Assembly (NCBI GenBank): GCA_049318585.1
Contig: JBMOGB010000002.1
Span: forward strand, 10,560 to 74,559
Direction: 5' to 3'
DNA: 64,000 nt
Source of the DNA: Bacteroidia bacterium
GTDB lineage: Bacteria > Bacteroidota > Bacteroidia > UKL13-3
Shown here one piece after another: positions 8,956-55,421 of this stretch (its first letter is position 1; every line of letters begins with the position of its first letter). The notes under the pieces are model-generated. The model was not told the origin of the DNA. It did not search any database and saw only the letters and a program-made list of their open reading frames with translations. Position numbers and translations under genes: made by a program.

Positions 8956-8978
8956 AACTTAGCTTATATTTATAACAA

Positions 8979-11621: not shown

Positions 11622-11695
11622 AACAACAACAATTTTTCAAAGCAAATGAAATTGACTGATAATAAACTCAAAATAAATAGAAAACAAACAATAAA

Positions 11696-12544: not shown

Positions 12545-12601
12545 CTTAATTGCATTTTGTTTAGCTTAAAGTTGTTTACATATTCACAAACAAATAATTC
12601 T

Positions 12602-13900: not shown

Positions 13901-15134
13901 TCACTAAATTTACCAAAGTCATTTCCAATCCTTTTTTCAAAAGACCAGTGTGTTTTGGATTGAATTGGTGCAAACGCATCATGGCTTGCCAAATTACTTT
14001 TGAAGAATCTTTGAAAATTGCTTCATCGGTTAAATCAACTTCATCGTTACTTTGGCAATAAGCAAATACACGTGCCATACCGCAATTAGCAATAAAATCA
14101 GGGATTACAGCTACTTTGTCATCGGTATAATTTGCCACTTCACCCATAAATATTTCTTCATCGGCAAAAGGAACATTTGCTCCGCAACTAATTACTTCTA
14201 ATTCGCCTTCCACCATTCTATCTACTTGCTCTTTGGTTAACAAACGAGAAGCAGCAGCAGGTATAAATATTTCAGCACCAATGTCCCAAATTTTTGCATT
14301 CACTTCTTCATACGAAAGCATGTCAAGATGAACCAAAGTGTTTCCTTGTTTGTTTAAAAACAGGTCCTTTATTTCATCTTTTGTAAAGCCAGTATTTTTT
14401 ATCAATCCACCGTTACGGTCAATAATTCCAACTATCATCACACCATACAAACTTAGGTAATAAGCAGCCGCAGCGCCTACATTTCCCCAACCTTGAATAA
14501 TGGCACGTTTCATATTTACATTTCCACCCCAAATTCCGTAGTAATGACGAACAGCTTCAGCAACGCCATAACCTGTAATCATATCGGCAGTTACCAAGTT
14601 TTTGTCATCGGCAGGAATAAAACGTAAATCGGTTAATTTTTTTGAAACACCACCAGTTAAATTGGCCAAACGCTTTTTTGTTGAAGTAGCATCTACTTTA
14701 AAATGTCCATTCACTACACCTTCTTGCGGATGAAATAAACCCAACTTTTCAGTAATAGGAATTACTTCATGAATTTCATCTACGTTTAAATCGCCACCAG
14801 TACCATAATAAGTTTTCAATAATGGCATCACAGCTTTATACCAACGTTCCAACACGCCTTTTTTACGAGGATCTGCTGGGTCGAAATTGATTCCTGATTT
14901 TGCACCACCTATTGCTGGACCAGCTATGGCAAATTTTATTTCCATGGTTTTTGCCAATGAAGTAACTTCATGTTTGTTCAAACCTTTGCGCATACGCGTT
15001 CCACCACCAGCAGCTCCACCTCTTAACGAGTTAATAACTACCCAACCTTCAGCTTCAGTTTCGCTGTCTTTCCATTCAAAAACAATCTCTGGTTGTTTCG
15101 ATTCGTACTTTTGTATTAATTTATCTAATTGCAT
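13896..15134 (-). CDS. Glu/Leu/Phe/Val dehydrogenase family (glutamate dehydrogenase-like)
   Basis: 412 aa; GGAAGGGTRM substrate-binding motif; Rossmann GWGNVGAAAA. Confidence 0.88.
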   Translation of the reverse strand: MQLDKLIQKYESKQPEIVFEWKDSETEAEGWVVINSLRGGAAGGGTRMRKGLNKHEVTSLAKTMEIKFAIAGPAIGGAKSGINFDPADPRKKGVLERWYKAVMPLLKTYYGTGGDLNVDEIHEVIPITEKLGLFHPQEGVVNGHFKVDATSTKKRLANLTGGVSKKLTDLRFIPADDKNLVTADMITGYGVAEAVRHYYGIWGGNVNMKRAIIQGWGNVGAAAAYYLSLYGVMIVGIIDRNGGLIKNTGFTKDEIKDLFLNKQGNTLVHLDMLSYEEVNAKIWDIGAEIFIPAAASRLLTKEQVDRMVEGELEVISCGANVPFADEEIFMGEVANYTDDKVAVIPDFIANCGMARVFAYCQSNDEVDLTDEAIFKDSSKVIWQAMMRLHQFNPKHTGLLKKGLEMTLVNLVK

Positions 15135-39958: not shown

Positions 39959-41428
39959 ATGGGATGTTCAAGTGGAGGATGCAGCACTGGTGGCTGTTCT
40001 AGCGGTGGGTGCAGCACGGGAGGCTGCAATAAATTAAATACATACGATTGGTTAAGTGATTTGGTAATGCCACCTCATACCAAACCTTTTGATGTAGTAG
40101 AAGTAAGTTTTAAAGGAACCAGAAAAGAGTACTTTAGAAACAATAATTTGGATATAACCAATGGCGATTTTGTAATTGTTGAATTAGAAAATGGATACGA
40201 TTTTGGTAAAGTAAATTTAAAAGGAGAACTAGTAAAACTTCAATTAAAGAAAGTAGGCTTAACTCCCGAAAGTACTCATATTCGTAAAATTATTCGCAGA
40301 GCAAACGACACTGATATTGCAAAGCATAAAGAAAATAAAGAACTAGAAATTCCAACTATGTTTAAAGCCAGAACTCACGCTTTGGAGTTAGGTTTAAACA
40401 TGAAACTAAGTGATGTAGAATATCAGGGTGATAAACGAAAAGCCATATTTTATTACACAGCCGAAGACAGGGTAGATTTTAGAGAGCTGATAAAAAAGCT
40501 AGCCGATGAGTTTAAAGTTCGTATAGAAATGAAACAAATTGGTTATAGGCAAGAGGCTGGAAGGCTTGGTGCAATTGGTAGTTGCGGACGTGAACTTTGT
40601 TGTAGTACATGGCTTACCGATTTTAAATTGGTACACATAAATGCTGCGCGTTATCAAAATTTATCAATCAATCAGTTAAAACTTTCGGGGCAATGTGGTA
40701 AGCTAAAATGTTGTTTAAACTTTGAGTTAGATGTGTATCAAGAATCGTTAAAAGATTTTCCGGAAAAAGACAATAACATCATTGAATTTGCTGGCGATTT
40801 GCGTTACAAGCAAGTAAAAATTGATATTTTAAAACGTATTTTATTCTTTGCTCCAATGGGCGAAGCAAATGGCGATTGGTTAGAGTTAAGTGTAGAAAAA
40901 GCCAAAGAATATATTAGCCAAAACAGAGATGGAGTAAAACCAGAATTGGTAATTAAACCCAAAGTAGAATTGAAGAAAGTAATAGAACTTGACTTTAAAA
41001 ACGACATGGGAATGGATAGTTTAACAAGGTTAGACGATAACAAAAAACGCAACAATAACAATAAAAACAACCGCAATAAAAACAATAAACCCAATCCAAA
41101 TGCGGTTCAAGGAAATAACACAAATCAGAACAAACCACAACAACCAAGGCCGGCAAACACGAATCCGAATGCTAAGCCAATTAACAATAATCCAAACGCA
41201 AAACCGATAAATACTAATCCAAACGCTAGGCCAGTAAATCCTAATCAACAACCAAGACCTGCAAATCCAAATCAAAGACCACCACAAGCCAATGTAAACG
41301 CTAATGAAAACAAGCCTTTGGAGGATAAGCCAATTAATGCAAACCCCAATAATAAACCAAAGTTTAACAAAAATAGGAACAATAGAAACAAACCAAATTC
41401 ACCCAAACCCGATGATAAAAAGGAGTAA
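39959..41428 (+). CDS. PSP1 domain protein (YaaT/RicT-like) with repeat-rich termini
   Basis: PSP1 core (RKAIFYYTAEDRVDFRELIKKLADEFKVRIEMKQIG); Cys cluster GSCGRELCCSTW..GQCGKLKCCL; N-terminal (GGCS)n; C-terminal Asn/Pro-rich repeats. Confidence 0.8.
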   Translation: MGCSSGGCSTGGCSSGGCSTGGCNKLNTYDWLSDLVMPPHTKPFDVVEVSFKGTRKEYFRNNNLDITNGDFVIVELENGYDFGKVNLKGELVKLQLKKVGLTPESTHIRKIIRRANDTDIAKHKENKELEIPTMFKARTHALELGLNMKLSDVEYQGDKRKAIFYYTAEDRVDFRELIKKLADEFKVRIEMKQIGYRQEAGRLGAIGSCGRELCCSTWLTDFKLVHINAARYQNLSINQLKLSGQCGKLKCCLNFELDVYQESLKDFPEKDNNIIEFAGDLRYKQVKIDILKRILFFAPMGEANGDWLELSVEKAKEYISQNRDGVKPELVIKPKVELKKVIELDFKNDMGMDSLTRLDDNKKRNNNNKNNRNKNNKPNPNAVQGNNTNQNKPQQPRPANTNPNAKPINNNPNAKPINTNPNARPVNPNQQPRPANPNQRPPQANVNANENKPLEDKPINANPNNKPKFNKNRNNRNKPNSPKPDDKKE

Positions 41429-41912
41429 ACATATTATTTCAATAATTGTATTTGTGCTGGTTTCATTTTGTTTTGGAGCATGCGGAAATGCGCCAATTTT
41501 TGATGAAAACAAAGAAATACTAGCATATAAATGGGACTATAAAACACCAATTAGTTTTGATATAAACATTGCTGATACCAATAAATATTGTAATGTATTT
41601 ATCAATTTGAGAATTAATGGCGATTATAAATACAGTAATATGTTTATGTGGGTTCATGAAATATTACCCGATAAAACGGTTACAAAAGAAAGAATAGAGT
41701 TTACACTAGCCGATGACAGAGGTAAATGGCAAGGCAAAGGCTTTGGCGATATTCATGCTTACCAATTACAATTTAAACCACGAATGAAGTTTAAACAAAC
41801 TGGAATTTATACCTATAGTTTGGAACAAAACATGCGTGATGATATTTTGGAAAATGTAGTAAGCGCAGGTGTTCGCATTGAATTTTGGACTTCAGAATCG
41901 AAGGCTTGGTAA
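41412..41912 (+). CDS. gldH: gliding motility lipoprotein GldH
   Basis: Start at ATG 41412 gives MIKRSKHIISIIVFVLVSFCFGACG (lipobox); about 166 aa; conserved holB/PSP1/gldH order. Confidence 0.8.
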   Translation: MIKRSKHIISIIVFVLVSFCFGACGNAPIFDENKEILAYKWDYKTPISFDINIADTNKYCNVFINLRINGDYKYSNMFMWVHEILPDKTVTKERIEFTLADDRGKWQGKGFGDIHAYQLQFKPRMKFKQTGIYTYSLEQNMRDDILENVVSAGVRIEFWTSESKAW

Positions 41913-42194
41913 AAAAATATTTTTGCAACGATTTTCTTTTTCTGGAGGAAAGAACCAATTTATTGTTTCTTTAAATTTTTCAATAAAACAAAAATAGCTT
42001 GTTGTTACTTTTTTACCAAACAGTATTTCAAGCTGGTTAGGAAAAAGAATACAGATTTATAAAAAAATGTTACTAAACGATAAAAACAAGTAAAGTCTTT
42101 TACTATTTCATAAGAAAAGATCTCTTAGGAGGTCTTTTTTTATGAATAAAAATTAAACAAATTACCTTTTATTTGAAACAAATAAATACTATCC

Positions 42195-42626
42195 ATGAAA
42201 GTTAAAATTAGCAAATCAGCATTATTTTTGTTCCTGTTTTTTGAAGGTATCGGATTCAATTCCAGTTCTGTAAAAGCACAATCTAATGAAGCGTATACAA
42301 TAGTAGAACAAATGCCTGTATTTGCAAGTGGTGAAGAAAAAATGTATCAATTTATAAGTTCCAATATTAACTACCCTGCATTTTGCAAAGAAAATAATAT
42401 TATGGGTAGAGTAATTGTACGATTTATAGTTACTAGTAAAGGTGAGATTGATTCAGTAAATATTCTTGCTTCACCTCACCAAACCATGAGCGATGAGTGT
42501 ATAAGGATGATAAAATTAATGCCTATTTGGACACCTGGAAAACAAAATGGAAAACCAGTAAATGTATTTTTTACACTTCCAATAAGTTTTCAATTAGAAA
42601 CTTCCACACCTAAAAAAAGGAAATAG
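42195..42626 (+). CDS. TonB C-terminal domain protein
   Basis: Signal peptide; EQMPVF..GGE..; GRVIVRFIVTSKGEI; PGKQNGKPVNV. Confidence 0.75.
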   Translation: MKVKISKSALFLFLFFEGIGFNSSSVKAQSNEAYTIVEQMPVFASGEEKMYQFISSNINYPAFCKENNIMGRVIVRFIVTSKGEIDSVNILASPHQTMSDECIRMIKLMPIWTPGKQNGKPVNVFFTLPISFQLETSTPKKRK

Positions 42627-42643
42627 ATTTAAGATTATTTCAA

Positions 42644-44080
42644 ATGGAAGTTTCTCGCAATACTATTAAAACATTTTACTTGCTACTGTTTTCTCTGTTT
42701 TTTTACACTAATCTTATTGCCCAAAAAGCAGAAATATTAATAGAAGCAGAAATAAATCCTGAATATCCGGGTGGTGAATTTGCCATGAATAAGTATTTAG
42801 AGGAAAACTTAGTTTATCCTGTTTTTTGTGATAAAAACAATATTGGTGGAAGAGCAGTTGTAAAGTTTCGAGTAGCTAGTTCAGGATATGTTGATACTGC
42901 TTATATGATTCAATCACCACATGAATTAATCAGTGAAGAATGTATTAGATTAATGAAAGCTATGCCTAGGTGGAGTCCTGGAAGGCAAGCAGGTAAAGTA
43001 GTTCCTGTTTATTTTTCAATTCCATTTGTTTTTACTCCAGGTAATAATTCAGAATTTCCGAATAAGTATGAAGAATATTATCGTCTGAAAATAAATGCAA
43101 TTGATTCAATGATTTTAAATGAAAAACAAACAAAAGCTTCTGTTTTAAAATTTATATTATTAACAACTGAAGAATTCTATCATTATGAAAATATTGCACT
43201 CACTCAACCATCGTTATTTCCTAACAAAAACCTAAATATTTTAAGTAACACTCAATTTTTAAGTACTTATAAAAAATATTTTACATACAAAAACATTCAA
43301 ATTGATTCCATCAAAAATATTTTGAATGATTCAAATTTTTGCATTAACGATTCCGAAACAATTCAAACTCTCAATAAATTTAAATTGTTCATCAATAGAG
43401 AAATGAAATGCATCAATAGACTTGAAAATATTGCACCTTTTTGGCGGTCAAGTTTAAGTTTTCATCCAATATACAATAATTGGTATATGAATGATTCATT
43501 TACTCAAAAGTATGATTCATACTATTTAAATAAAACTGTTAATTTTTTGCTTTTTATTGATATGCCAAGTTATAATATCACTTCTGGAAACTTAAAAAAT
43601 GTGGGATATGACCATTCAATTAATTTCAATTTGGGCATTGGGTTTTGTTACAAAAAATTAACTTTTAAATTAGCCGCTGGAGTTATAGGTGGTAACAATG
43701 CTAATTACCATGTAAAATTTAAAGATAACCTTGTAAAAGCAAATATATCTTCGGCTACATTATATAGTTTACAAATTGATTACAGATATTTTTATAATAA
43801 AAAATGGAGTTATTTTGTGAATGGGGCAATTGGGAAAACTCACTTAAATCAATACACTGAAACACTTGAAAAAAATGTTTCTAAAGTGGAAGTTTCTAAT
43901 GAAATTCCCTATTTTAAACTAGGTCATACTATCAGTTATCGATTAAATCCAATCATTTTTTTTACTTTAAATACAAATATTTCTTACTTGAATCATCAAT
44001 CAAATGCTGGTAATGATTTAAGTGGAATGCTTTATCAAATTGGAGTTGGCGTAGGATATTGGGGAAATAAAAAATGGTAG
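42644..44080 (+). CDS. TonB C-terminal domain protein fused to a roughly 340-aa C-terminal (barrel-like) region
   Basis: The N-terminal 130 aa are paralogous to the preceding ORF. The C-terminus ends with alternating aromatic strands (GVGVGYWGNKKW). Confidence 0.7.
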   Translation: MEVSRNTIKTFYLLLFSLFFYTNLIAQKAEILIEAEINPEYPGGEFAMNKYLEENLVYPVFCDKNNIGGRAVVKFRVASSGYVDTAYMIQSPHELISEECIRLMKAMPRWSPGRQAGKVVPVYFSIPFVFTPGNNSEFPNKYEEYYRLKINAIDSMILNEKQTKASVLKFILLTTEEFYHYENIALTQPSLFPNKNLNILSNTQFLSTYKKYFTYKNIQIDSIKNILNDSNFCINDSETIQTLNKFKLFINREMKCINRLENIAPFWRSSLSFHPIYNNWYMNDSFTQKYDSYYLNKTVNFLLFIDMPSYNITSGNLKNVGYDHSINFNLGIGFCYKKLTFKLAAGVIGGNNANYHVKFKDNLVKANISSATLYSLQIDYRYFYNKKWSYFVNGAIGKTHLNQYTETLEKNVSKVEVSNEIPYFKLGHTISYRLNPIIFFTLNTNISYLNHQSNAGNDLSGMLYQIGVGVGYWGNKKW

Positions 44081-44205
44081 TTAATTAGTGGTTTGTTTTA
44101 TACATTTTACTTCAACAATTTTTTCAAAAAAAGAAGTGATTATTACTTATTTTTCTAATAATATTGAAAACTAATAGAATGCATTTTTGATTGTAAAAAT
44201 GTTAA

Positions 44206-45108
44206 ATGATAATAATGAAAAGCAAAAAAATGTTTGAGCTAGTTAAAAACATAATATCATTGGTAAGAATGAATCATTGGGTAAAAAATGGTTTTGTGTT
44301 TTTACCTGTTTTTTTTGCTGGGAAAATTGAGTTGATTTTTACTTCAAATTTGTTGTTATTATTTATTTCCTTTTGTTTGGCATCCTCGGCCATTTATATT
44401 TTAAACGACATGGTTGATGTAAATGCTGATAAATTACATCCTACCAAAAAGTTCAGGCCAATTGCAAGTGGGTTTTTCAGTATCAACCAATCGATTGTTT
44501 TATTTACAGTAACTGCTATACTTTTCTTTTTATCGTTATTACTTTTAGCACATGCTGGTTTATATGTTTTAAGTTATTTTGTATTAAATATTTTATACTC
44601 TTTTTACCTAAAACATTTGTCTATTGTTGATGTATCGAGCATAAGTGCGGGCTTTGTTTTAAGAGAATTGGCGGGTGGTGCCGAAAGCAATGTTTATGTG
44701 TCGCATTGGATGATTATAATGACTTTTTTGCTTACAGTTTCTATTGGTTTTGCAAAACGAAGAGACGATTTAGTTTTGGTGCTAGAAAAGGAATCTTCCA
44801 TCAAATCATTAGATGGATATACCATTCCATTTTTAGATATTGCAAAAAGCATTTCGTTTTCAATTACACTTATTTCCTATATTTTATATTCTATTTCAGC
44901 AGAAGTAATTGCCAGAATTGGCTCTGATAAATTATACATTACTTCACTTTTTGTTTTTTTAGGAATTATCAGGTACATACAAATTACGGTGGTTGACAAA
45001 AATTCTGGGTCGCCAATAGAAGTACTTTGGAAAGATAAATTTTTACAAATTACCTTATTACTTTGGGCATTCACTTTTCTGTTTATTATTTATGGAAAAG
45101 GTATTTAA
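44206..45108 (+). CDS. UbiA-family decaprenyl-phosphate phosphoribosyltransferase-like prenyl-phosphate PRPP transferase
   Basis: HWVKNGFVFLPVFF; ILNDMVDVNADKLHPTKKFRPIASG (NDxxDxxxD plus HPxKxxRPxASG); about 8 TM segments. Confidence 0.8.
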   Translation: MIIMKSKKMFELVKNIISLVRMNHWVKNGFVFLPVFFAGKIELIFTSNLLLLFISFCLASSAIYILNDMVDVNADKLHPTKKFRPIASGFFSINQSIVLFTVTAILFFLSLLLLAHAGLYVLSYFVLNILYSFYLKHLSIVDVSSISAGFVLRELAGGAESNVYVSHWMIIMTFLLTVSIGFAKRRDDLVLVLEKESSIKSLDGYTIPFLDIAKSISFSITLISYILYSISAEVIARIGSDKLYITSLFVFLGIIRYIQITVVDKNSGSPIEVLWKDKFLQITLLLWAFTFLFIIYGKGI

Positions 45109-46399
45109 TTGGGGCATGTATCCGCAAATTGAAGCCAATCAATTTTCGTCTGGCAATTATGGTAAAATAGCAGATTTTGTCAAAACAAAAGATGTAATTA
45201 TAGCAAGAGGAAACGGACGTTGTTATGGCGATAGTTCATTGCAAAAAAAAATATTTTCTACACTTTCCTTAAATAAAATAATAGCATTTGATGAAAAACT
45301 TGGAATTTTAAACTGTGAAGCTGGAGTTTTGTTAAGTGAAATATTGAATTTGATTGTCCCTAAAGGATTTTTTCTACCTGTTACTCCAGGAACTAAATTT
45401 ATTACAATTGGTGGAGCTGTTGCTTCAAACATACATGGAAAAAACCACCACAAAGAAGGTGCAATTGCAGCCTATATTCAGTCGTTTGAATTAATGATTG
45501 AAACTGGTGAAATAGTGCATTGTTCCGAAAAAAATAATACAGTATTGTTTGCAAACACTATAGGAGGAATGGGGCTAACAGGTATTATTCTATCTGTTCA
45601 AATTCGCTTAAAAAAAATTGAAACCAGTTATATCAATCAGTCAACAATAAAAGCCAAAAACATAAAAGAAATAATCACTTATTTTGAAAACTATAAAAAT
45701 ACAACATACACTGTGGCATGGATAAATTGTTTGGCAAAAGGAAATCATTTAGGTCAATCTATTTTGTATTTGGGCGAACATGCAAAAATTGATGAATTGA
45801 ATAAAAAACAATCAGAAAATCCGTTAAAAACACACCATAAAACACCAATAAATATTCCTTTCTATTTCCCAACCTTTGTTTTGAATAGCACATTTATAAA
45901 GCTGTTTAATTTTTTGTTTTATCATAAGCAATTGCGCCAAAAAGCAACTAAAATTATTGATTACAATTCGTTTTTTTATCCGTTAGATGCGCTCAATAAT
46001 TGGAATAAAATGTATGGTAAAAATGGTTTTACTCAATATCAATTTGTAATACCTTTTGAAAATGGCAAAGTAGTTTTGATTGAGATTTTAACTCAAATTT
46101 CTGATTCGGGTTGCAGTGCTTTTTTGGCAGTTTTAAAAACTTTTGGTCCAAAAGATGTTCATTCATCGCCACTTTCATTTCCAATGGAAGGTTACACTTT
46201 GGCTGTTGATTTTAAAGTGAATAAAAAAGTATTTCAATTGTTAGATCAATTGGATGAAATAGTGCTTAAATATGGTGGTCGTTTGTACCTTACCAAAGAT
46301 GCACGAATGACAGCAAATACATTTGCTAAAAGCTACCATGAAAGTTTGGTTCATCTAGCTAAATTTAGTTCACTACAATCAGAAAGATTAGGAATATAA
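45092..46399 (+). CDS. FAD-binding oxidoreductase, DprE1-like (prenylphospho-ribose 2'-oxidase family)
   Basis: PCMH-type FAD domain (ARGNGRCYGDSSL); C-terminal FLAVLKTFGP...GYTLAVDF...KYGGRLYLTKDARM closely parallels the DprE1 C-terminus as I recall it. Confidence 0.78.
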   Translation: MEKVFNWGMYPQIEANQFSSGNYGKIADFVKTKDVIIARGNGRCYGDSSLQKKIFSTLSLNKIIAFDEKLGILNCEAGVLLSEILNLIVPKGFFLPVTPGTKFITIGGAVASNIHGKNHHKEGAIAAYIQSFELMIETGEIVHCSEKNNTVLFANTIGGMGLTGIILSVQIRLKKIETSYINQSTIKAKNIKEIITYFENYKNTTYTVAWINCLAKGNHLGQSILYLGEHAKIDELNKKQSENPLKTHHKTPINIPFYFPTFVLNSTFIKLFNFLFYHKQLRQKATKIIDYNSFFYPLDALNNWNKMYGKNGFTQYQFVIPFENGKVVLIEILTQISDSGCSAFLAVLKTFGPKDVHSSPLSFPMEGYTLAVDFKVNKKVFQLLDQLDEIVLKYGGRLYLTKDARMTANTFAKSYHESLVHLAKFSSLQSERLGI

Positions 46400-47071
46400 A
46401 TGGAACAAAATAAAGAGCTAAAAAAAGGAGTAGCATTTTTTGATTTTGATGGAACCATCACTTTCAAAGATTCTTTTATGGAGTTCGTTAAGTATTCAAA
46501 TGGCAGCTTTAAATTGGTTTTATGTATATTTTGGAACGCTCCATTCATAGTTTTTTTTTATTTGAAATTGTATTCAAATCACCAATTAAAGGAACGTTTT
46601 TTTTCGTTTTTCTTCAAAAATAGTTTAGAAACGGAAATTATAGCAAAAGGAGTTTTGTTTAGCAAAAACCAGCTTTCAAAAATTTGTTTTCCAAGTGCAA
46701 TGAGGCTAATTCAGTGGCATAAAGCCCAAAATCATGATGTATATATTTTAACAGCCTCTTCCAATATTTGGTTAAAAGATTGGTGCAAAACAAATAATTT
46801 GATATTGATTGGAACCGAGTTTGAAACAATAAATGGATTATATTCCGGTAAAATTGCAGGTAAAAACTGCCATGGACAGGAAAAACTAAATAGAATAAAA
46901 GCATTGCTAAATCAATATAATAATGATGAAACTTATGGGTACGGAAACGAAAAATCGGATAGATTTTATTTAAACAAAATGCGTTTTAAATTGAATGTAC
47001 CACTGAACGAAAAAAATGTTTCTTTATTCCTGAAAATGCATTCAGAAGGGTCGTTAATAAGTTCGAAATAA
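46400..47071 (+). CDS. HAD-IB family hydrolase/phosphatase
   Basis: Motif I AFFDFDGTIT; start abuts the previous stop. Confidence 0.75.
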   Translation: MEQNKELKKGVAFFDFDGTITFKDSFMEFVKYSNGSFKLVLCIFWNAPFIVFFYLKLYSNHQLKERFFSFFFKNSLETEIIAKGVLFSKNQLSKICFPSAMRLIQWHKAQNHDVYILTASSNIWLKDWCKTNNLILIGTEFETINGLYSGKIAGKNCHGQEKLNRIKALLNQYNNDETYGYGNEKSDRFYLNKMRFKLNVPLNEKNVSLFLKMHSEGSLISSK

Positions 47072-47073
47072 AT

Positions 47074-48603
47074 ATGTGGGAGACTATAAAAATCAATTTT
47101 GGTAAATACTTTAAAGTTGGAACAGAAAATTTCAATCAATCTATTTTTCTGCTAATTATTGTGTTTTCTATTGCGTTACGGTTTTTGCATTTTGGAGAAA
47201 TAATTGATGATCCGCATGGTTGGCGACAATGCGATACTGCCAATTATATTTGGGATTATTATAAAAATGGTGTTGATTTTTTACATCCAGCTGTTTGTTG
47301 GATGGGAGGATATAAAACGCTTATTTTAGAGTTTCCATTAACCGAAGCTATTGTGGCTTGGCTTTACCAAATTTTTGGTCCAAGTATCTCCATTGCACGT
47401 TTGTTTTTTTTGTTTTTTTACAGTTTAGGAGTTTATTATTTTTATAAAAGTTGTTTATTATTTCTTCCTAAGAAAACAACCCTATTTTCAACAATAATTT
47501 ATACTTTTTTACCCTTATCTTATTATTATTCTCGGGCATTACACATCGATTTTTTTGCACTTTCATTTGCTTTTGGTATGTTTTATTTTTATACCGTTGG
47601 TATACAATTGCAAAGCACAAAAAAAATAGTAATAGGAAGTTTGTTTGCAACAGTGGCTTTTTTGGTAAAAGCACCTTATGCTGTATCATTTTGCTTGCCA
47701 ATTGTATTTATAATAACCAAAGAAAAAAAATGGTTTTTTTGCCTAAAATGGGCAGTATTATTTATATTTCCAGTAGTAATATTTGCTTGGTGGATTATTA
47801 AATCAAAGCACATAAATGCAATGGCACCCGATTGGCAATTTATTCCCGGTTACCGCAAATTTGATGACAATAACAGATGGTATTTTGGATTGTTTGAACA
47901 TCGGTTTATATGGAGAAGTTGGCAAACGCTTTTTGATAGACTAATGACCGATATGACTTCCGGATTTATTGGTGCTGGTTTATTTATTGTAGGAATTTTT
48001 GCTGCTTTCAAACAAAAATATATAATACTTTGGGTGTGGTTTTTAGGTGTCATTTTATACTTGCTTGTGTTTTTCAATCTCAATGTAATCCATAACTATT
48101 ATCAAATTCCTTTTGTTCCATTATTTGCCATTTTTATGGCTATTGGAATTGAATTTTTGGATAACTTTTTCAAATTTAAAAGTTCCTATATTTCAATAAA
48201 ACTATTTTTACTAATTGCAATAATTATTAGTTCAGTCATTTACTCCGAAAGCAATTTTTTTAAACACGAAGTAATTTATGAAAATATTGCAAAATGTATT
48301 GAAGACAATACGCAAGAAGATGATTTGATCATTGTTTCTTGCGGTGGATTATCGGTTCATTGTCCTATAATTTTGCATAGAGCAAAACGAAATGGTTGGT
48401 CGATACCAGTTAATGATTTAAATGAAAAAATAGCAACAAATTTAGTAAAGGAAAATTGTAAGTACATTGCATTTGTAGCGTATGAACTACCGTTAAATGA
48501 GTTTGGTAATTTTTTAAAACTATACCCAATAAAAGATATTCTACTTCAAAAGGGTCAACACCTTTTTTTAATAGATTTGAGCCGTAAAAACGAAATACAA
48601 TAA
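47074..48603 (+). CDS. GT-C fold glycosyltransferase (family 39/83-like, ArnT/PMT-type membrane protein)
   Basis: 509 aa; more than 10 TM segments; early periplasmic-loop acidic motif (EIIDDPHGWRQCD); soluble C-terminal domain. Confidence 0.7.
   Translation: MWETIKINFGKYFKVGTENFNQSIFLLIIVFSIALRFLHFGEIIDDPHGWRQCDTANYIWDYYKNGVDFLHPAVCWMGGYKTLILEFPLTEAIVAWLYQIFGPSISIARLFFLFFYSLGVYYFYKSCLLFLPKKTTLFSTIIYTFLPLSYYYSRALHIDFFALSFAFGMFYFYTVGIQLQSTKKIVIGSLFATVAFLVKAPYAVSFCLPIVFIITKEKKWFFCLKWAVLFIFPVVIFAWWIIKSKHINAMAPDWQFIPGYRKFDDNNRWYFGLFEHRFIWRSWQTLFDRLMTDMTSGFIGAGLFIVGIFAAFKQKYIILWVWFLGVILYLLVFFNLNVIHNYYQIPFVPLFAIFMAIGIEFLDNFFKFKSSYISIKLFLLIAIIISSVIYSESNFFKHEVIYENIAKCIEDNTQEDDLIIVSCGGLSVHCPIILHRAKRNGWSIPVNDLNEKIATNLVKENCKYIAFVAYELPLNEFGNFLKLYPIKDILLQKGQHLFLIDLSRKNEIQ
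48565..48603 (+). repeat. left copy of the 39-bp direct repeat (attL-like)
   Basis: TTTTTAATAGATTTGAGCCGTAAAAACGAAATACAATAA; 36/39 identical to 53345-53383; encodes the real C-terminus LIDLSRKNEIQ-stop. Confidence 0.85.
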
Positions 48604-48695
48604 ATGGTATAATTTTTTGACTTGTTAAATATGTTAAATTAAACATATTTGCCAACTAGGACAGCTTAAATAATAGTTTGCCAAGACTCAAAAAT

Positions 48696-48863
48696 ATATT
48701 TCAATAGGTTACAAATTAGTTTCCATAGGATTCGAATATATTTCCATAGATTAAAAATAAGCTTCCATAGGATTCGTAAGTATTTTGATTGGTTACAAAT
48801 ATACTTCCATAGGCTGCAAATTAACTTCGATAGGATGCTAATGTATTTCTATATTCCAACGGT
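48696..48863. repeat. 8 x 21-bp phased tandem repeat (iteron-like)
   Basis: ATAGG-type cores at 48704, 48725, 48746, 48767, 48788, 48809, 48830 and 48851 (exact 21-bp steps). Approximate consensus nTAnTTCCATAGGATTCnAAT. Confidence 0.85.
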
Positions 48864-48945
48864 TATAAATCAACTATAAAAGGCTTTAAACTTTGTGAAT
48901 AAACTTGTTAATAAAAAAACAATCAATAAAACTTGATTATTAGGA

Positions 48946-49000
48946 ATTGGACAATTATTTTTGGACAAAATTATTCCAAAAAATACAATCCATTACTTTT
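48946..49000 (+). promoter_or_regulatory. candidate operator plus Bacteroidota -7 box for the R-M operon
   Basis: Direct TTGGACAA repeats at 48946-48953 and 48960-48967. TACTTTTG (TAnnTTTG) at 48993-49000, 20 bp before ATG 49021. Confidence 0.35.
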
Positions 49001-49020
49001 GAGTTTAAATAAAAATTCTT

Positions 49021-49317
49021 ATGATGAAACAGATAAATAATTTAAATGATGTAGAAGCATTTGCCAAGCAAATTATTAACGAAGGTGTAAGTTTTCACCC
49101 AGATGATGATTTCAATGATTACGTTGTTTTAAAAACAAATAATCCTTGTTATATTAAACTGGAAGCAGACGATAGAAACGAGTTAATGAATCAATGTTTT
49201 GAAGTCTGTGAAAAAAACAATGTAGATATTTATGATTTTATGAATGAAGTTTTTTTAAAAGAAACAAATTTGGAGAAATTCATTCCTTTACCCTCTTCTA
49301 TTACAAACGAAAAATGA
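49021..49317 (+). CDS. hypothetical acidic 98-aa protein, first gene of the R-M operon
   Basis: ORF with ATGA overlap to the next gene; no family recognised. Confidence 0.55.
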   Translation: MMKQINNLNDVEAFAKQIINEGVSFHPDDDFNDYVVLKTNNPCYIKLEADDRNELMNQCFEVCEKNNVDIYDFMNEVFLKETNLEKFIPLPSSITNEK

Positions 49318-49634
49318 AAATCAAAATAGCTCAAACGACTGGTGAACTCATACGTAAATTACGTGAAGAGAAGGAATTGCCGCTGAGAAAAATTGCTGCA
49401 CTACTTGACATTGATACATCTTTTTTTAGCAAGATAGAACGTAGCGAACGCAAAGCGACCAAAGAACAAATTCATAAATTAGAGGAAATTTTTGAAGTAG
49501 AGAAAGATGCTTTAATGATTCCATATTTAAGTGAAAAAATTTACTTTGAGCTTTCAGAAGAAGATTGTGCAACCGAAGTTTTAAAAGTTGCAGAGGAACG
49601 TGTTAAATACGAAAAAAGTAAAAGTAAAAAATAA
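49314..49634 (+). CDS. XRE-family helix-turn-helix regulator (candidate R-M controller)
   Basis: GELIRKLREEKELPLRKIAALLDIDTSFFSKIERSERK HTH; 106 aa; ends 2 nt before the first methyltransferase. Confidence 0.8.
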   Translation: MKIKIAQTTGELIRKLREEKELPLRKIAALLDIDTSFFSKIERSERKATKEQIHKLEEIFEVEKDALMIPYLSEKIYFELSEEDCATEVLKVAEERVKYEKSKSKK

Positions 49635-49636
49635 AT

Positions 49637-50710
49637 ATGGCAAACAAACAGCTAAAAGTTATTGACCTATTTTCTGGTTGCGGTGGATTCTCCTTCGGGT
49701 TTGAATCTGCTGGTTTCCATGTTGTGTTAGGAGTAGATAATGATAAAGCAGCTTTAGAAACCTTCAAAGCAAATCACAATAATTCAAAAATCCTTTTAGC
49801 TGACTTGCATCAAGACAAAGCAATTGACGACATAGTAAACGAAGTGAACGGACATAAAATAGATGTAATAATTGCTGGACCTCCTTGTCAAGGTTTTTCA
49901 TTGACAGGTGCAAGACAACACAATGATGAAAGAAACAAATTATTTTATTCCGTTTTCAGACTTGCAGAAAGAGTAAAACCAAGCGCTATAATTATTGAAA
50001 ATGTGCCAGGACTTGCAACATTATATAACGGGCAAGCAAAAGCAGCAATACTAGAAGAATTTGAAAAATTAGGCTTCACAAGTAACTTTAAAGTTTTATA
50101 CGCACCCGACTATGAAGTTCCACAAATTCGTAAACGAATATTTTTTGTAGGACTAAAATCTAAACTTGGAAAGTTTGAATTTCCAAAAGAAGTTCTAACA
50201 GTAGATAATTACAATACAACATCAATAGCAATTTCTGACTTGCCAACATTGGTTAACGGTTTTGGGCAAGAAAAAGATGAATACGATAAGCCGCCACAAA
50301 CAGCTTATCAAAAGAAAATGCGAAATGGCTCAAAAGTTTTGTTTAACCATGTGGCTACAAAACACACCGACCACGTAATAAATGTTATTTCACAAGTTCC
50401 TGATGGTGGCAACCACAAAGACTTACCTAAAGGGGTTGGGGATAGTAGAACATTTAATGAAGCTTGGACAAGATACAACAGTAATAAGCCATCAAAGACA
50501 ATTGATACTGGACATCGCAATCATTTTCATTACAAATTAAATCGTGTGCCAACTGTTAGAGAAAATGCAAGACTTCAATCATTTCCTGATAGCTTTGTGT
50601 TTTTTGGAAACAGAACTCAACAAAATAAACAAGTTGGAAACGCTGTGCCACCATTATTAGGATTTCACGTTGCTAAAAAACTTTCAACCTACTTAACTAA
50701 AAAGCTATGA
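49637..50710 (+). CDS. DNA (cytosine-5)-methyltransferase 1
   Basis: Motifs I FSGCGGFS, IV GPPCQGFS, VI ENVPGL, VIII QIRKRIFF, IX TVRENARLQSFPD, X GNAVPP. Confidence 0.93.
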   Translation: MANKQLKVIDLFSGCGGFSFGFESAGFHVVLGVDNDKAALETFKANHNNSKILLADLHQDKAIDDIVNEVNGHKIDVIIAGPPCQGFSLTGARQHNDERNKLFYSVFRLAERVKPSAIIIENVPGLATLYNGQAKAAILEEFEKLGFTSNFKVLYAPDYEVPQIRKRIFFVGLKSKLGKFEFPKEVLTVDNYNTTSIAISDLPTLVNGFGQEKDEYDKPPQTAYQKKMRNGSKVLFNHVATKHTDHVINVISQVPDGGNHKDLPKGVGDSRTFNEAWTRYNSNKPSKTIDTGHRNHFHYKLNRVPTVRENARLQSFPDSFVFFGNRTQQNKQVGNAVPPLLGFHVAKKLSTYLTKKL

Positions 50711-51942
50711 CTGAAAAAATAAAACTGATTGATTTGTTTGCAGGTTGTGGTGGCCTTTCTGACGGATTTGAGCAAACGCATATGTATGATACTCTTGCTT
50801 GCGTAGAATGGGAAAAAGAACCTTGTAAAACATTAGCAAAGCGTTTGAAAGACAAATGGAATTATAAAAACACTTACGAAACTGTATTTCACTTTGACAT
50901 TCAACGAACGGAAGAACTAATAAATGGTTGGAGTAATGACCCAACCTACGGAGCAAGTGAAGGCATCAATTCCATTGTACAAAAGCACAAAGGAATTGAT
51001 GTATTAATTGGTGGTCCGCCTTGCCAAGCATATTCCATAGCAGGCAGAATTCGTGACGAAAATGGAATGAATGACGATTATAGAAACTTTCTTTTTGAAA
51101 GTTATTTGAAAGTAGTAAATCACTTTCAACCTAAAGCATTCATCTTTGAAAATGTTCCTGGGCTTTTGAGTGCAAAGCCAGGAGGTATATCAATTGTTGA
51201 AAGAATTACAGAAGCTTTTGCAGAGAAAGGATATGAAATAACAAATGATTTAAGGGGAAATGCCTTAATTGATTGCACGAAATTTGGAGTTCCGCAAGCC
51301 CGTAAAAGAATGGTGATTTTAGGAGTTAATAAAAATTTGATAAAAGAAGCCCCTGCTGTTGCTTTACACGATTTCTATAAGTTCATCTTTCCAAAATACC
51401 AAACAAAAAACGTATCCACAGTGAAAGATGCAATTGATGATTTACCTAAATGGCATCCATTAAAAGAACCAATAAAAGTCAGCAACAGAAAATTCTCTCA
51501 TTCATACAGTGCTTGCAAAATTGCAAATCACGAACCAAGAATGCACAGCAAAAGAGATATTGAAACTTTTGAATTGCTAACAACAGATATTGAAAGCGGA
51601 CAAAACAAATTTGCAACTGTTGAATCTTTAAAAGATTTGTATTTTGAAATTACTGGTAAAAATTCAAATATTCATAAATATCACGTTCTAAAGTGGAACA
51701 AACCAAGTAACACAATTCCTGCTCACTTATATAAAGACGGCTTACGACATATTCACCCTGACCCAAAGCAATCAAGAACTATTACAGTAAGAGAAGCTGC
51801 AAGACTTCAATCTTTTGATGATGATTTTGTTTTTACCGGCAGTTTAACCGACCAATATAAAATGGTTGGAAATGCAGTACCACCTAAATTTGCTAAAGCA
51901 ATTGCATTAGCTTTAAATGACTTTTTAAAAAAATATTTCTAA
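50707..51942 (+). CDS. DNA (cytosine-5)-methyltransferase 2
   Basis: Motifs I FAGCGGLS, IV GPPCQAYS, VI ENVPGL, VIII QARKRMVIL, IX TVREAARLQSFDD, X GNAVPP; ATGA overlap with M1. Confidence 0.93.
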   Translation: MTEKIKLIDLFAGCGGLSDGFEQTHMYDTLACVEWEKEPCKTLAKRLKDKWNYKNTYETVFHFDIQRTEELINGWSNDPTYGASEGINSIVQKHKGIDVLIGGPPCQAYSIAGRIRDENGMNDDYRNFLFESYLKVVNHFQPKAFIFENVPGLLSAKPGGISIVERITEAFAEKGYEITNDLRGNALIDCTKFGVPQARKRMVILGVNKNLIKEAPAVALHDFYKFIFPKYQTKNVSTVKDAIDDLPKWHPLKEPIKVSNRKFSHSYSACKIANHEPRMHSKRDIETFELLTTDIESGQNKFATVESLKDLYFEITGKNSNIHKYHVLKWNKPSNTIPAHLYKDGLRHIHPDPKQSRTITVREAARLQSFDDDFVFTGSLTDQYKMVGNAVPPKFAKAIALALNDFLKKYF

Positions 51943-52881
51943 ATGTTACACTACAAAAATCTACACAAGTTATTTTTTGAATCGTTTCCTAATAAGGCGA
52001 CAAATTTCATTGCATTAAGCGGTTTTGTTGGTTTAGAGCCAATAAAAAACTTGGGAGACCTTCCGTTTGAAAGTAAAATCATTTATGGACTTCAAAAAGA
52101 AAATCAAAAACTTTTGCTTCATCAACAATTGGTTGGATTACATAATGAAAATCGAAAAATTTATTATCCTGACATCGCTTGTCATTCAAAATGTTACTTG
52201 TGGTTACAAGGACAAACGCCAATTAAAGGCTTGATTGGTTCTGCAAATTTTTCTTCTAATGGACTTCAAAACGATTACAGAGAAACTTTGTTGGAGGTTG
52301 ACCAAAACCAACTCTATGTATTGAAAGGTTACATTGAAATAATTTTAAACTCAGCAAAAGAATGTAACACGGTTGAAGTTGTTGAAGCACCTGAATTATC
52401 ATTAGCATACAACAAAGAAATTTGTGATATGATTTTGTACGACCCTCAAACTGGACAGACTCAAAATGGTCATGGTTTAAATTGGGGTTTTGCAGACGCA
52501 AATGTTAGACCTAATGATGCTTGTATTCCAATTAGAACTGAACACATAAGAAAATACCCAAAACTTTTCCCGCCTCTTCAACCTGACCCCGAAACAAGAA
52601 AAGGAACTTTAAAAGAAGTTATTGAATTTGTTTGGGATGATGGGTTGGTTATGCAAGGAAGGTTAGAAGGTTCTCAACCGCTTCCAAATAATGACTTAAA
52701 ATTCCCTAAGCAGATAGCTTCATTTCCCCACAAAGACGAATTAGGAATATACATAAGAGAAAGGTTAGGTATTCCTTTAGGACAAAGAGTTTTAAGAGAG
52801 GATTTAGTGAATTACGGACGCGACACAATATCAGTTTCGTTAATGGAGGAAGGTGTTTACTTTTTTGACTTCTCTGTTTAA
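51943..52881 (+). CDS. PLD-superfamily (single HKD) restriction endonuclease, NgoFVII/BfiI-like
   Basis: ACHSKCYLW...GLIGSANFSSNG (HxK...GSxN). The C-terminal half (GHGLNWGF..IPIR..) resembles the B3-like DNA-binding domain of this family. Start abuts the M2 stop. Confidence 0.72.
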   Translation: MLHYKNLHKLFFESFPNKATNFIALSGFVGLEPIKNLGDLPFESKIIYGLQKENQKLLLHQQLVGLHNENRKIYYPDIACHSKCYLWLQGQTPIKGLIGSANFSSNGLQNDYRETLLEVDQNQLYVLKGYIEIILNSAKECNTVEVVEAPELSLAYNKEICDMILYDPQTGQTQNGHGLNWGFADANVRPNDACIPIRTEHIRKYPKLFPPLQPDPETRKGTLKEVIEFVWDDGLVMQGRLEGSQPLPNNDLKFPKQIASFPHKDELGIYIRERLGIPLGQRVLREDLVNYGRDTISVSLMEEGVYFFDFSV

Positions 52882-52974
52882 TTTCAACTAATTTGCAAGC
52901 ACATTTTAGTTTTTCTCAAGCACATAATTCGAATTTGGGTAGCTAGTACGGACACCAATTTCAGGCAAGTAATA

Positions 52975-53007
52975 AAACAAAAAAGCCAACTGACGTTGGC
53001 TTTTTTG
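52975..53007. terminator. bidirectional terminator
   Basis: AAAAAAGCCAAC-tgac-GTTGGCTTTTTT between the nuclease gene and the minus-strand remnant. Confidence 0.75.
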
Positions 53008-53015
53008 TTTTATTA

Positions 53016-53344
53016 CTTTTTAGGTGTTTCTGTTTTAGGTGGTTTAACTGATGTAACTTTTTCGGCACTTATTGCTTTTGAAATTTTGCTAAAAATAAAT
53101 TGTTCTTTTAAAGTAGGATTGTCTTTACAAAACTTAGCAGCTATTTGGGCTACTCCAATTACTTCTTCGTACAAATTATTGAACTCGGCTATATAATTGG
53201 TAGTAGTAGTTTTTTTAACATTTTTTGCTGTTTCTTGGCTTACGTTTGTGTTTTTTTCTGTATCGGCATAGCCTAAAATTGCAGTAATTGTAGCCTTATT
53301 TATCTTGGTGCTTATTTCGGTTTCTAAAGGTTTATCTAAATTGG
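53016..53344 (-). pseudogene. start-less C-terminal remnant of an unknown gene
   Basis: Hand translation: about 110 open codons (...KPLETEISTKINKATITAILGYADTEKNTNVSQETAKNVKKTTTTNYIAEFNNLYEEVIGVAQIAAKFCKDNPTLKEQFIFSKISKAISAEKVTSVKPPKTETPKK-stop). No in-frame ATG or GTG; upstream the frame runs into the right direct repeat. Confidence 0.45.
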
Positions 53345-53383
53345 TTTTTAATTGATTTGAGCAATAAAAACGAAATACAATAA
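53345..53383 (+). repeat. right copy of the 39-bp direct repeat (attR-like)
   Basis: TTTTTAATTGATTTGAGCAATAAAAACGAAATACAATAA; would read LIDLSNKNEIQ-stop. Confidence 0.85.
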
Positions 53384-53432
53384 GTAACTCCTATTTTTAC
53401 AAATAAGTATATATTTGATTTTTTTTTCACTT

Positions 53433-55421
53433 ATGAAACAGTTTAACCTAACTAATTTTATTCTATTTATCTCTTGTATTGCACTATTTACAGTTATTCA
53501 AACTTCCAATGTAAAGCAAACCAGTGGCGACAGTCAATTAACTTTATTAACGTCACAAGCTATTATTGAAAATGGGAATGTAAATTTGTCAAAATATTAT
53601 GCTCAAATCCCGCAGGATCAGTTTTCAAATGGTACTTGGAAATTCAGGTTTAATAATGTCAAGAATCAAATAGAATACATTTACCCAATTGGTAATTCAA
53701 TCATAGCAATTCCATTTGTTTTTATTGCAAATAAATTGGGAATGAATATGCTAATTCCAGAGCACGATGCTAGTTTACAATTGCTCATTGCAAGCTTGCT
53801 GGCAATGACATTGTTATTGTTAAATTTTAAACTAGCCAGGTTATTTGTAAGCGATTATTCTGCTTTATTTATAGCTTTAACTTTTACTTTTTCTACATCA
53901 TACATTAGCACTTGCGGAACCGCTTTATGGAGTTTCAATTCAGAACTTATTTTTATTGTTTTATTACTCATTGAAATAGCTAAAACAGAAATAAACAAAT
54001 CATATATTCCTAATTTTGGATTATTGGGTTTGTACCTTTTTTTGGCTTGGTTATGCAGGCCTAGTGCCATGGTTTTTATAGCCTTCTTTTTTGTTTGGAT
54101 GCTTTTAAAACAAAGAAATTTGATACTAAAAACTTTGATCAGTTTTGTAATTTTCATTGGATTTTTTATGCTATTGTCTTATAGTTGGTATGGAACATTT
54201 ATTCCTTTTTATTACAATCCGCTGATGTGGCAAAGTATGACCAAAACGGTAAGCATTTGGGAAGGCTTTTCTTTGATTCTATTTAGCCCTAATAGAGGCT
54301 TATTTGTTTACAGTCCATTTTTAATTATTTCACTTTTAGCTGTGTTTACAAAAGCAAGAAAAACCATATTGTTTAAACTATTAATAGGTTGGTTTTTGAT
54401 TTATATTCTAAGTCTTGGCAACTTAAGCAATTGGTGGGGTGGCTGGAGTTTTGGAGCAAGGCTTTGCACCGATATAATTCCTTGTTTGTTTTTACTTTTA
54501 TTATTAGGAATAAAAAATATGGATGAAGTAAAATGGAACAACAAGATAATATTACCCATTTTTATTATAACAGCATTTGTAGGTTTTATTATTAATACCG
54601 TTCAAGGAATTTATAATATAGAAACTTATAATTGGAACGATTCCCCAGCAATTGATAAAAACTATCAATTTTACAAATGGAACTGGCAATACCCTCAATT
54701 TTTGGCCAATAAAAGAAATAACGAAAACAAAAAAATAGATTTTGAAATGCATAGTTTTTATTCGAAATTTATTTTAAAAACATCCGAAAATGCTAATATC
54801 TTAATGGGTGTACCTGATGCCAATTATAGAAACATTTTAAATAATTGGAATCAACAAAAAATGTATGGAAATAGGAATTTTTTTAATTCAATAAATGACT
54901 CAATAAACAATGATACGTTTTACTTTTTCAGGCCAAGCCACGATTATGTAAGAACATTTAGCAATATTGAAGTGCTGTTTAATTCAAACATAGAAATGGC
55001 CGAGTTTTTAAGTGAAAACAGTGCTAATTTAATTATACTTACTTCAAGAGGAAATTGGAAAGGAAATATTTCGGAAAAACTTAAAAACAAACTGTTTACT
55101 TTAGGTTTAAAACTAGCCGATTTAAACAATTTTTCAAACTATTTGGCTGTAATAAATAAAGGTAAAATTATGTTTGAATTGAGCCATGAAACCAATGAAG
55201 TGAAGCAAGAATTTATAATGGATAAAGATAAATTGGAGGTTTCATCATTTACAGGTTTAGCATCTACTAAGTTGAACGGAAAAGAACTGAATATTAACTT
55301 AGACGGAATTAATATTTTGGTGTTAAATTCCAAAATGGAAATAGAAAAATTAGGTTACGTAAATTTACAATCAAACGAAAACTACATTGATTTATTTTTA
55401 TACAAGGCTGTAAAAAAGTAA
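53433..55421 (+). CDS. GT-C-like polytopic membrane protein with soluble C-terminal domain
   Basis: Start at ATG 53433 (the TTG at 53415 lies inside a TATATTTG -7 box at 53410-53417). About 12 TM segments followed by roughly 230 soluble residues. Confidence 0.6.
   Translation: MKQFNLTNFILFISCIALFTVIQTSNVKQTSGDSQLTLLTSQAIIENGNVNLSKYYAQIPQDQFSNGTWKFRFNNVKNQIEYIYPIGNSIIAIPFVFIANKLGMNMLIPEHDASLQLLIASLLAMTLLLLNFKLARLFVSDYSALFIALTFTFSTSYISTCGTALWSFNSELIFIVLLLIEIAKTEINKSYIPNFGLLGLYLFLAWLCRPSAMVFIAFFFVWMLLKQRNLILKTLISFVIFIGFFMLLSYSWYGTFIPFYYNPLMWQSMTKTVSIWEGFSLILFSPNRGLFVYSPFLIISLLAVFTKARKTILFKLLIGWFLIYILSLGNLSNWWGGWSFGARLCTDIIPCLFLLLLLGIKNMDEVKWNNKIILPIFIITAFVGFIINTVQGIYNIETYNWNDSPAIDKNYQFYKWNWQYPQFLANKRNNENKKIDFEMHSFYSKFILKTSENANILMGVPDANYRNILNNWNQQKMYGNRNFFNSINDSINNDTFYFFRPSHDYVRTFSNIEVLFNSNIEMAEFLSENSANLIILTSRGNWKGNISEKLKNKLFTLGLKLADLNNFSNYLAVINKGKIMFELSHETNEVKQEFIMDKDKLEVSSFTGLASTKLNGKELNINLDGINILVLNSKMEIEKLGYVNLQSNENYIDLFLYKAVKK

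Follow-up and report, generated by a model that had tools for sequence, protein, structure and literature searches.

A restriction-modification (R-M) operon lies between two glycosyltransferase genes of a glycan locus in the DNA analyzed here, a 64,000-nt stretch from a Bacteroidia bacterium (assembly GCA_049318585.1, contig JBMOGB010000002.1, positions 10,560 to 74,559; hereafter the window). Compared with the related alleles L021 and L003, the segment at 48604-53344 is a 4,741-bp insertion for which a 39-bp target was duplicated. It consists of native sequence (48604-48658), an array stretch (48659-48894), the R-M module (48895 to about 52966) and the 3' 45% of a gene that we call D (53013-53344). 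We consider it probable, though by a limited measure, that this is a composite insertion generated when alleles of one slot in the glycan locus recombined, homologously on one side and illegitimately on the other, with no integrase involved.

The left copy of the 39-bp direct repeat (48565-48603, plus strand; TTTTTAATAGATTTGAGCCGTAAAAACGAAATACAATAA) is the functional 3' end, stop codon included, of an intact gene for a GT-C-type (PMT_2) glycosyltransferase of 509 aa (hereafter GT-C; 47074-48603, plus strand; Pfam PF13231, E=3.3e-7). It encodes the final 13 codons of this open reading frame (ORF) (FLIDLSRKNEIQ-stop), and GT-C has the same length of 509 aa in L003 and L021. The right copy (53345-53383, plus strand; TTTTTAATTGATTTGAGCAATAAAAACGAAATACAATAA) is an orphan lying directly against the native promoter DNA of the gene that follows, and no GT-C-like reading frame was found 5' of it. 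An earlier note, made from the letters alone, had described this pair as matching at 36 of 39 positions, with the genuine C-terminus of GT-C on the left and an orphaned copy on the right. Direct reading and a repeat search (92% identity, spacing 4780 bp), the intact ORF ending at the left copy and the lack of a GT-C-like frame upstream of 53345 all agree with that description. The note had also raised the possibility that the 39-mer is a dispersed repeat. A degenerate search allowing up to 3 mismatches revealed only the two copies in the 64-kb window, with 0 matches in 100 shuffles as the chance expectation, and the conserved 3' part of the 39-mer occurred once per related locus and was absent from 2.9 million viral contigs.

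Both junctions were also seen in Logan contigs from one sequencing run, SRR30676220. Contig L001 is the same as window 40988-49535 at 100% and spans the left junction. Contig L020 is 100% identical over 52882-53344, includes the orphan 39-mer, and has the gene table M1-M2-R, then a 662-aa gene, and on into the downstream glycan genes. The repeat pair is not peculiar to the one assembly.

The empty site is best seen in L021. Blastn aligned L021 1339-5786 with window 44157-48603 (90.3%) and L021 5748-7822 with window 53345-55420 (82.5%), and the two blocks overlap by exactly the single 39-mer of L021 (TTTTTAATTGATTTGGGCCGTAAAAACGAAATACAATAA), which matches the left window copy at 37/39 positions and the right copy at 36/39. 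The single 39-mer of L003 likewise aligns to both window copies. An allele with the two glycosyltransferase genes adjacent and one 39-mer, as the note had anticipated, exists in both L021 and L003; the distance of about 50 bp that it expected between the genes once the segment was removed is close to the 48 bp from the stop to the next ATG in L021. No relative carrying both copies was encountered, each relative examined holding one 39-mer.

A search for homologues of the GT-C protein yielded seven informative related alleles, namely L021, L003, L002, L019, L018, L004, and L017. All of them have UbiA, FAD-binding, HAD and GT-C genes upstream and a 662-668-aa putative glycosyltransferase, Wzz and Wzy downstream; their differences lie in what occupies the slot that separates GT-C from the 668-aa gene. 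The slot is empty in L021 (GT-C 88% identical to that of the window at the nucleotide level) and in L003 (81%). It contains a cassette of AlgX-like (SGNH) and MBOAT O-acyltransferase genes in L002 (80%; 11600-14301) and in L019 (72%; 6428-9165), and a 175-bp spacer with a 62-nt remnant of an MBOAT 3' end (4144-4205) in L018 (81%). For L004/L017 (92%), GT-C is followed by a hairpin, two TTTGCCAA words, an array of about 13 copies and the 3' end of an ISL3 transposase gene, where the contigs end. The transposase fragment (PF01610, 1.4e-11; L017 5359-5571, minus strand; L004 11880-12005) follows or interrupts the array. The L004/L017-type strain comes from samples Ga0247839 and ERZ27250579. The eight alleles, including that of the window, present five slot states (empty, AlgX+MBOAT, MBOAT scar, ISL3, and R-M), and the slot is hypervariable.

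Relatives without the R-M genes also have the left part of the insert. Region A (48604-48658, plus strand) directly follows the GT-C stop, and the blastn homology of L002 and L019 continues past that stop to 48658 and 48654, respectively. About 50 nt after the stop, including a palindrome and the first TTTGCCAA word (48648-48655), aligned with L002 at ~82%, and the local alignment scores of region A with L002 and L019 (31 and 23) were reached by 0 of 5000 shuffles; no similarity to region A was seen in the empty alleles. By these alignments, region A is the sequence that natively follows GT-C in other alleles. The palindrome, a hairpin with a 9-bp stem (48627-48650; -8.6 kcal/mol, z=-1.5, unremarkable), and both TTTGCCAA words are present as the note had listed them. 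The palindrome and the first word follow the same stop in L002 and L019 and belong to native sequence; they are not features of an element.

Region B (48659-48894, no strand assigned) comprises the second TTTGCCAA word (48678-48685), a 21-bp tandem array (48692-48853) and then a 41-bp spacer. The array was resolved by TRF into 7.7 copies with a 42-bp super-period and the core TTCCATAGG. The homology of L004/L017, in which the array has about 13 copies, extends through it to 48848 at 91% identity. A 111-aa ORF without family match was called across the array in L017, and all reading frames across the array of the window are broken. The two TTTGCCAA words flank the point (about 48655-48658) where the homology of L002/L019 stops; they might be microhomology used in joining the module of array and D to the native leader. 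A TTTGCCA word is also found 5' of the R-M module in L006 (7914-7920).

At the right end, the insert terminates within a gene. Region D (53013-53344, minus strand) is the 3' ~45% of a conserved hypothetical gene of ~245 aa; it lacks a start codon and breaks off where the right repeat begins. Its frame (53342-53016, minus strand) gave 187 phmmer matches at E<=1e-3, the best being P0213 (1.7e-23, 60% identity). Residues 1-6 of the query align to about residues 138-142 of proteins of 240-250 aa, placing the joint inside the coding sequence at about residue 138 of the ~245-aa protein; by phmmer and tblastn, the similarity to full-length proteins begins at the junction. The family was detected by exhaustive phmmer, and a word-indexed protein search gave no match. 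Neither did region D match Pfam, NCBIfam, PHROGs or PADLOC; the family had no Foldseek match with E<0.1 in PDB and BFVD, and was absent from the plasmid and phage collections and from the viral-contig scan. Its members are all-helical proteins of ~245 aa titled 'hypothetical protein [Flavobacterium]' (e.g., WP_236456680.1), mostly carried on short contigs. Between the convergent restriction endonuclease (REase) gene and D lies a perfect hairpin with a 24-bp stem (52967-53018, no strand assigned, 100% complementary), which overlaps the stop codon of fragment D. Its folding energy is -31.2 kcal/mol (z=-7.5), and 0 of 200 shuffles folded equally well. It is likely a bidirectional terminator, predicted from its fold and position, which probably halts read-through of both convergent transcripts. 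A weak resemblance between 52995-53036 and an internal part of GT-C, considered also against L018, was judged a T-rich chance likeness. The note had mentioned neither the tandem array nor the perfect hairpin nor the truncated gene D.

Beyond the orphan repeat, the native order resumes. L003 and L021 align with the right flank from exactly 53345 onward, and the gene that follows GT-C directly in both of them is found here at 53415-55421 (plus strand; 668 aa if read from TTG, 662 aa if read from the ATG at 53434). It encodes a putative glycosyltransferase, with a match to the NCBIfam LA_3751/LA_3752 family (E=4.9e-15) that falls short of the curated cut-off. The upstream region of this gene (53384-53433) is conserved in all alleles and contains TATATTTG, which fits the Bacteroidota -7 motif TAnnTTTG. 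Since the downstream gene retains its own upstream region, the glycan pathway is probably undisrupted.

The R-M module has a history distinct from that of the DNA around it. From 48895 on it is 87% identical at the nucleotide level to L006, L007, and L008, the flanks being unrelated, and the L006 copy adjoins an NgoPII system. L006 is contig JANMLV010000292.1 of GCA_031372705.1 and breaks off within M2. The left limit of 48895 was measured, and the right limit, between 52882 and 52966, was inferred. The note had proposed a comparison of composition with the flanks, and the module (48895-52966) is an outlier by tetranucleotides (distance 0.254, as against 0.149 +/- 0.023 with a maximum of 0.214 in other 4.1-kb windows) as well as by GC content (33% vs 28-29% in the flanks). 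Judged by homology and composition, the operon is a horizontally mobile, foreign module.

Considering the minus strand, the order in the window is the D fragment, its stop inside the perfect hairpin, the R-M module and the 21-bp array. The best full-length gene of the D family, in contig L022 (711-1442), has a stop codon followed after 45 nt by an array at about 1488-1720, which agrees with that of the window in its 21-bp period and 42-bp super-period but not in sequence. Excising 48895 to about 52966 from the window would leave the array about 46 nt past the D stop, as in L022. The R-M operon hence looks like a secondary insertion between the terminator of D and its array. The D-family protein and the 21/42-bp array might together make up a Bacteroidota module not described before, such as a DNA-binding protein paired with iteron-like repeats, that offers incoming DNA a landing pad or recombination a hot spot; we regard this as rather unlikely. 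Such a landing pad would explain the nesting of the R-M genes between gene and array, the ISL3 element at the L004/L017 array and the short contigs that carry D.

From the anatomy of these alleles, with both allele types in view, we infer how the segment could have arisen. The donor would be a related strain whose allele has the order GT-C, hairpin, array, R-M genes and gene D, and the recipient would carry an empty-type allele with GT-C and then the next glycosyltransferase gene. A homologous left crossover would fall within or upstream of GT-C, and an illegitimate right join would fuse the interior of D with the recipient GT-C at a position 39 bp short of its stop. An equivalent route would be the entry of a circularised donor fragment through a single crossover within the 39-bp homology. 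By either route, the last 39 bp of the recipient GT-C would remain as the orphan copy. For DNA with one-sided homology, a single crossover has been found to duplicate the homologous segment in Escherichia coli (PMC3240628).

Two kinds of junction, each found alone in relatives, are united in the window. The left junction is of the L004/L017 type (GT-C, hairpin, array). The right junction, where the GT-C end is followed by the promoter region and the 668-aa gene, is that of L021 and L003, reading TAA-GTAACTCCTATTTTTACAAATAAGTATATATTTG in the window and TAA-GTTATTCCAATTTTTACAAAAAAGTATATATTTG in L021. As both junction types occur in tandem, recombination between a donor allele and an empty allele is the simplest explanation. 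The flanks are consistent with inter-allele recombination in several respects. GT-C is a mosaic, with blocks of 99% identity (about nt 225-525) to L004 10001-11530 in an overall identity of 91.6%, which suggests recent homologous exchange between lineages. The two flanks diverge unequally: for the window and L021, identity is 88.0% over GT-C and drops to 81.7% over the gene after it, while the corresponding values for L003 and L002 are 88.0% and 87.8%. The differences between the repeat copies also sort by ancestry, the left copy having CCGT like L021 and the right copy CAAT like the more distant L018.

Searches for mobility functions are in line with the absence of an integrase. No ORF of the insert matched integrase or transposase families, in agreement with the note, tRNA and Rfam scans of the insert and its surroundings came back empty, and on either side the gene order is collinear with that of the relatives. 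A plasmid origin was rejected: blastn against 72,556 plasmids matched the methyltransferase (MTase) genes only, at 67-71% identity, with no Rep gene, so a derivation of the array from plasmid iterons is unsupported. A phage origin was likewise rejected, homology in 50,697 phage records being restricted to the MTase genes, and neither the array motif, the 39-mer nor the D-family protein was found in viral contigs. With respect to a unit bounded by transposon or insertion sequence ends, the insert in the window contains no transposase and only a weak inverted pair (48621-48645 / 52875-52899). This pair of 25 nt is 76% complementary, which is at chance level (one of 180 pairs in the 10 kb scanned), and its left arm lies in native DNA; it was discarded as transposon ends.

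The proposed process resembles homology-facilitated illegitimate recombination, which was reportedly described by de Vries & Wackernagel and by Prudhomme et al. in 2002. One side is anchored by homology, the other is joined at an arbitrary point, the old 3' end is displaced downstream as an orphan, and no recombinase gene is required. In contrast to those cases, the orphan in the window is only 39 bp, and the mechanism is read from comparative anatomy. Recombination with one-sided homology, or illegitimate recombination, has also been invoked for orphan gene ends at type VI secretion system and Rhs loci (PMC5361080).

Several points weigh against the inter-allelic origin. The full donor allele (GT-C, region A, array, hairpin and full-length D) was not recovered, and L004/L017 break in the ISL3 element straight after the array. 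The association of D with the array is known from one full-length example (L022) besides the window. The usual outcome of classical homology-facilitated illegitimate recombination is a loss of recipient DNA, not a duplication, and a homology of 39 bp lies close to the minimum length for a RecA-dependent single crossover. An integrase acting in trans, discussed below, would also account for the lack of a recombinase gene in the insert.

The insertion itself belongs to a known class. R-M insertion with long target duplication was reportedly described by Nobusato et al. in 2000. Furuta et al. (2010, NAR 38:2428, PMC2853133) collected at least 9 R-M insertions with duplications of >30 bp and without mobility genes, and the Haemophilus influenzae cases among them are bounded by 46-bp repeats that extend over the 3' ends of genes, the copies differing from each other at 1-3 positions (PMC2853133). 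Accordingly defined, the class comprises inserts of <20 kb that contain R and M genes, carry a >30-bp duplication relative to a single copy, and have no mobility gene. The insert in the window has an REase gene and two MTase genes (49637-52881), is 4,741 bp long, duplicates 39 bp relative to L021, and shows no mobility-family match, collinear flanks and no tRNA. As in the H. influenzae cases, the repeat overlaps a gene 3' end and its copies have slightly diverged. Unlike the cases of Furuta et al., it is found in Bacteroidota, it is composite (leader, array, nested R-M module and truncated gene), and donor-type and recipient-type alleles are both seen among its relatives. The presence of both allele types points to inter-allelic recombination rather than to an R-M unit moving alone.

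Among the alternatives, the one that survives best is a self-contained mobile R-M unit arriving from an unrelated locus by the mechanism of long target duplication itself (widely staggered breaks, or attack by both ends of a linear DNA). We consider it unlikely; it overlaps heavily with the inter-allelic explanation and differs only in the source of the donor DNA. All the operational features used by Furuta et al. are present, and repeats occur beside R-M systems at a higher frequency than beside the average gene (PMC2853133). However, such a unit would have to end inside a gene, and an extra event would be needed to explain how region A and the array come to share their position and orientation with L004/L017, L002, and L019. 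On this reading, the left end would resemble native sequence because the unit had acquired this flank earlier.

The polarity might also be reversed, the island state with two 39-mers being the older one and the L021-like empty alleles having arisen by repeat-mediated deletion. Recombination between the 39-bp direct repeats would recreate the exact L021-type junction, and deletion scars do occur in the slot, as in L018 with its 62-nt MBOAT remnant. Nevertheless, the junction of GT-C and promoter is common to L003 (a different clade, 81%), L021 and the right junction of the window, so the empty-type junction predates the island, and the origin of the duplication would still need explaining. We judge this order of events quite improbable.

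The note had called the repeat pair a classic footprint of site-specific integration into a gene's 3' end by a stranded element that supplied a replacement end. An insertion it is, given the empty site in L021/L003, but the second part of the claim is not supported. In this model, a mobilisable island with a 39-bp attP of the same sequence as the GT-C 3' end would have been integrated by a tyrosine or serine recombinase acting in trans or since lost, and the 39-mers would be attL and attR. As in integrase islands, the direct repeat at the gene 3' end restores the frame of the target gene and the empty site has one copy; an integrase could have acted in trans, and Furuta et al. find the two classes hard to separate by repeats alone (PMC2853133). 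Against this, there is no recombinase gene in the insert and the flanks are collinear with the relatives. The ends of the insert are not element-specific, unlike those of integrase islands: the left 55-250 bp of the supposed element are native or locus-specific (48604-48658 is native and the R-M homology begins only at 48895), and the right end is a truncated gene. D is cut exactly at the junction, which speaks for an arbitrary breakpoint rather than an att arm. Moreover, relatives of the R-M module occur elsewhere without these ends, the 39-mer is absent from the viral contigs, and the two copies differ at 3/39 positions. Site-specific integration is therefore very unlikely in our estimation. 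An assembly chimera, or a chance insertion between pre-existing repeats, is hardly credible, for although the source is apparently metagenome-derived and related contigs often break in this region, the Logan contigs match at 100% at both junctions and every relative has a single 39-mer.

The mechanism of R-M insertion with long target duplication has gone unexplained since its description in 2000-2010. The slot examined here offers a natural series, with an empty state, a donor-type left side, alternative cargo, a deletion scar, and an R-M allele with a truncated gene, and this series argues against R-M-specific or integrase activity, at least in this case. It extends the phenomenon of long target duplication to Bacteroidota and illustrates that defence genes can lodge inside glycan operons, where diversifying selection and frequent recombination would aid their spread.

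The nested R-M module (48895 to about 52966, plus strand) consists of a promoter/operator region, a gene for a 98-aa protein, a helix-turn-helix (HTH) gene, two 5-methylcytosine (m5C) MTase genes and an REase gene, all on the plus strand. The HTH_3 (XRE-type) protein of 106 aa (49314-49634; Pfam HTH_3, E=3.1e-6) is a candidate controller (C) protein, its PADLOC matches being HTH_VI (6.3e-9) and, as a weak likeness, 'Control_protein' (1.9e-6). C5 cytosine DNA methyltransferases 1 (49637-50710; 357 aa; PF00145, E=5.9e-72) and 2 (50707-51942; 411 aa; PF00145, E=6.8e-62) both match TIGR00675 dcm. They are followed by an NgoFVII-type REase of 312 aa (51943-52881) with a PLD nuclease and a B3-like DNA-binding domain (PF09565, E=3.1e-22; PF20731, E=2.8e-18). 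The operon resembles NgoFVII (NgoVII)-type IIP systems in its RE_NgoFVII PLD domain and B3-like C-terminal domain next to m5C MTases, the type being assigned by domain content; unlike those systems, it has an HTH gene and a conserved 98-aa gene upstream. With TTGGAC...TTGGACAAA..TTATTCCAAAA motifs located 5' of the 98-aa gene both in the window (48935-49000) and in L006 (7920-7965), the TTGGAC-rich region is a candidate operator for the HTH protein. The upstream HTH_3 gene, its weak 'Control_protein' likeness and this conserved TTGGAC-rich region are what was observed with regard to possible control by a C protein. The operon is predicted to provide the host with m5C-based defence. GCSGC, the candidate recognition sequence for an NgoFVII-type system, is not depleted in the window (19 sites against 11 expected), a count that is uninformative on R-M activity.

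The 98-aa protein (49021-49317, plus strand) represents a conserved, unannotated family. We found 241 homologues of about 97 aa, with 60-84% identity among the 120 listed, including L006 8001-8297, L009 8001-8294, and L013 8001-8294. On the contigs examined, the genes lie directly 5' of, or overlap, an m5C MTase gene or the HTH gene preceding it. The operon contexts differ, being NgoFVII-type here and HATPase_c_3 + Z1 + DUF4420 + AIPR elsewhere. The AlphaFold2 model has a pLDDT of 93.6, and the invariant residues include H26-P27-D28-D29 and C59/C63. No match was obtained in Pfam, NCBIfam, PADLOC, PHROG, the PDB profile search or Foldseek against PDB. That this protein is an accessory factor or regulator of a new kind in m5C-based systems is conceivable but rather unlikely.

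Two repeat-related or compositional peculiarities were observed near relatives of these genes. In L006, a non-coding, GC-rich stretch of ~380 bp (7500-7880) in an AT-rich contig lies between the NgoPII-type R-M pair and the relative of the window's R-M module. In L013, a 157-aa ORF immediately 5' of a defence operon with 97-aa, MTase, Z1, and AIPR genes contains a 12-bp tandem repeat (7041-7160; 10 copies, 92% matches).

Among the related alleles, L002 (CAZGVO010000001.1) is titled 'uncultured Bifidobacterium sp.'. Its locus is collinear with and 79% identical to the low-GC, Bacteroidota-like window, which has GldH and TonB genes among its neighbours, and its taxonomic label is probably wrong.

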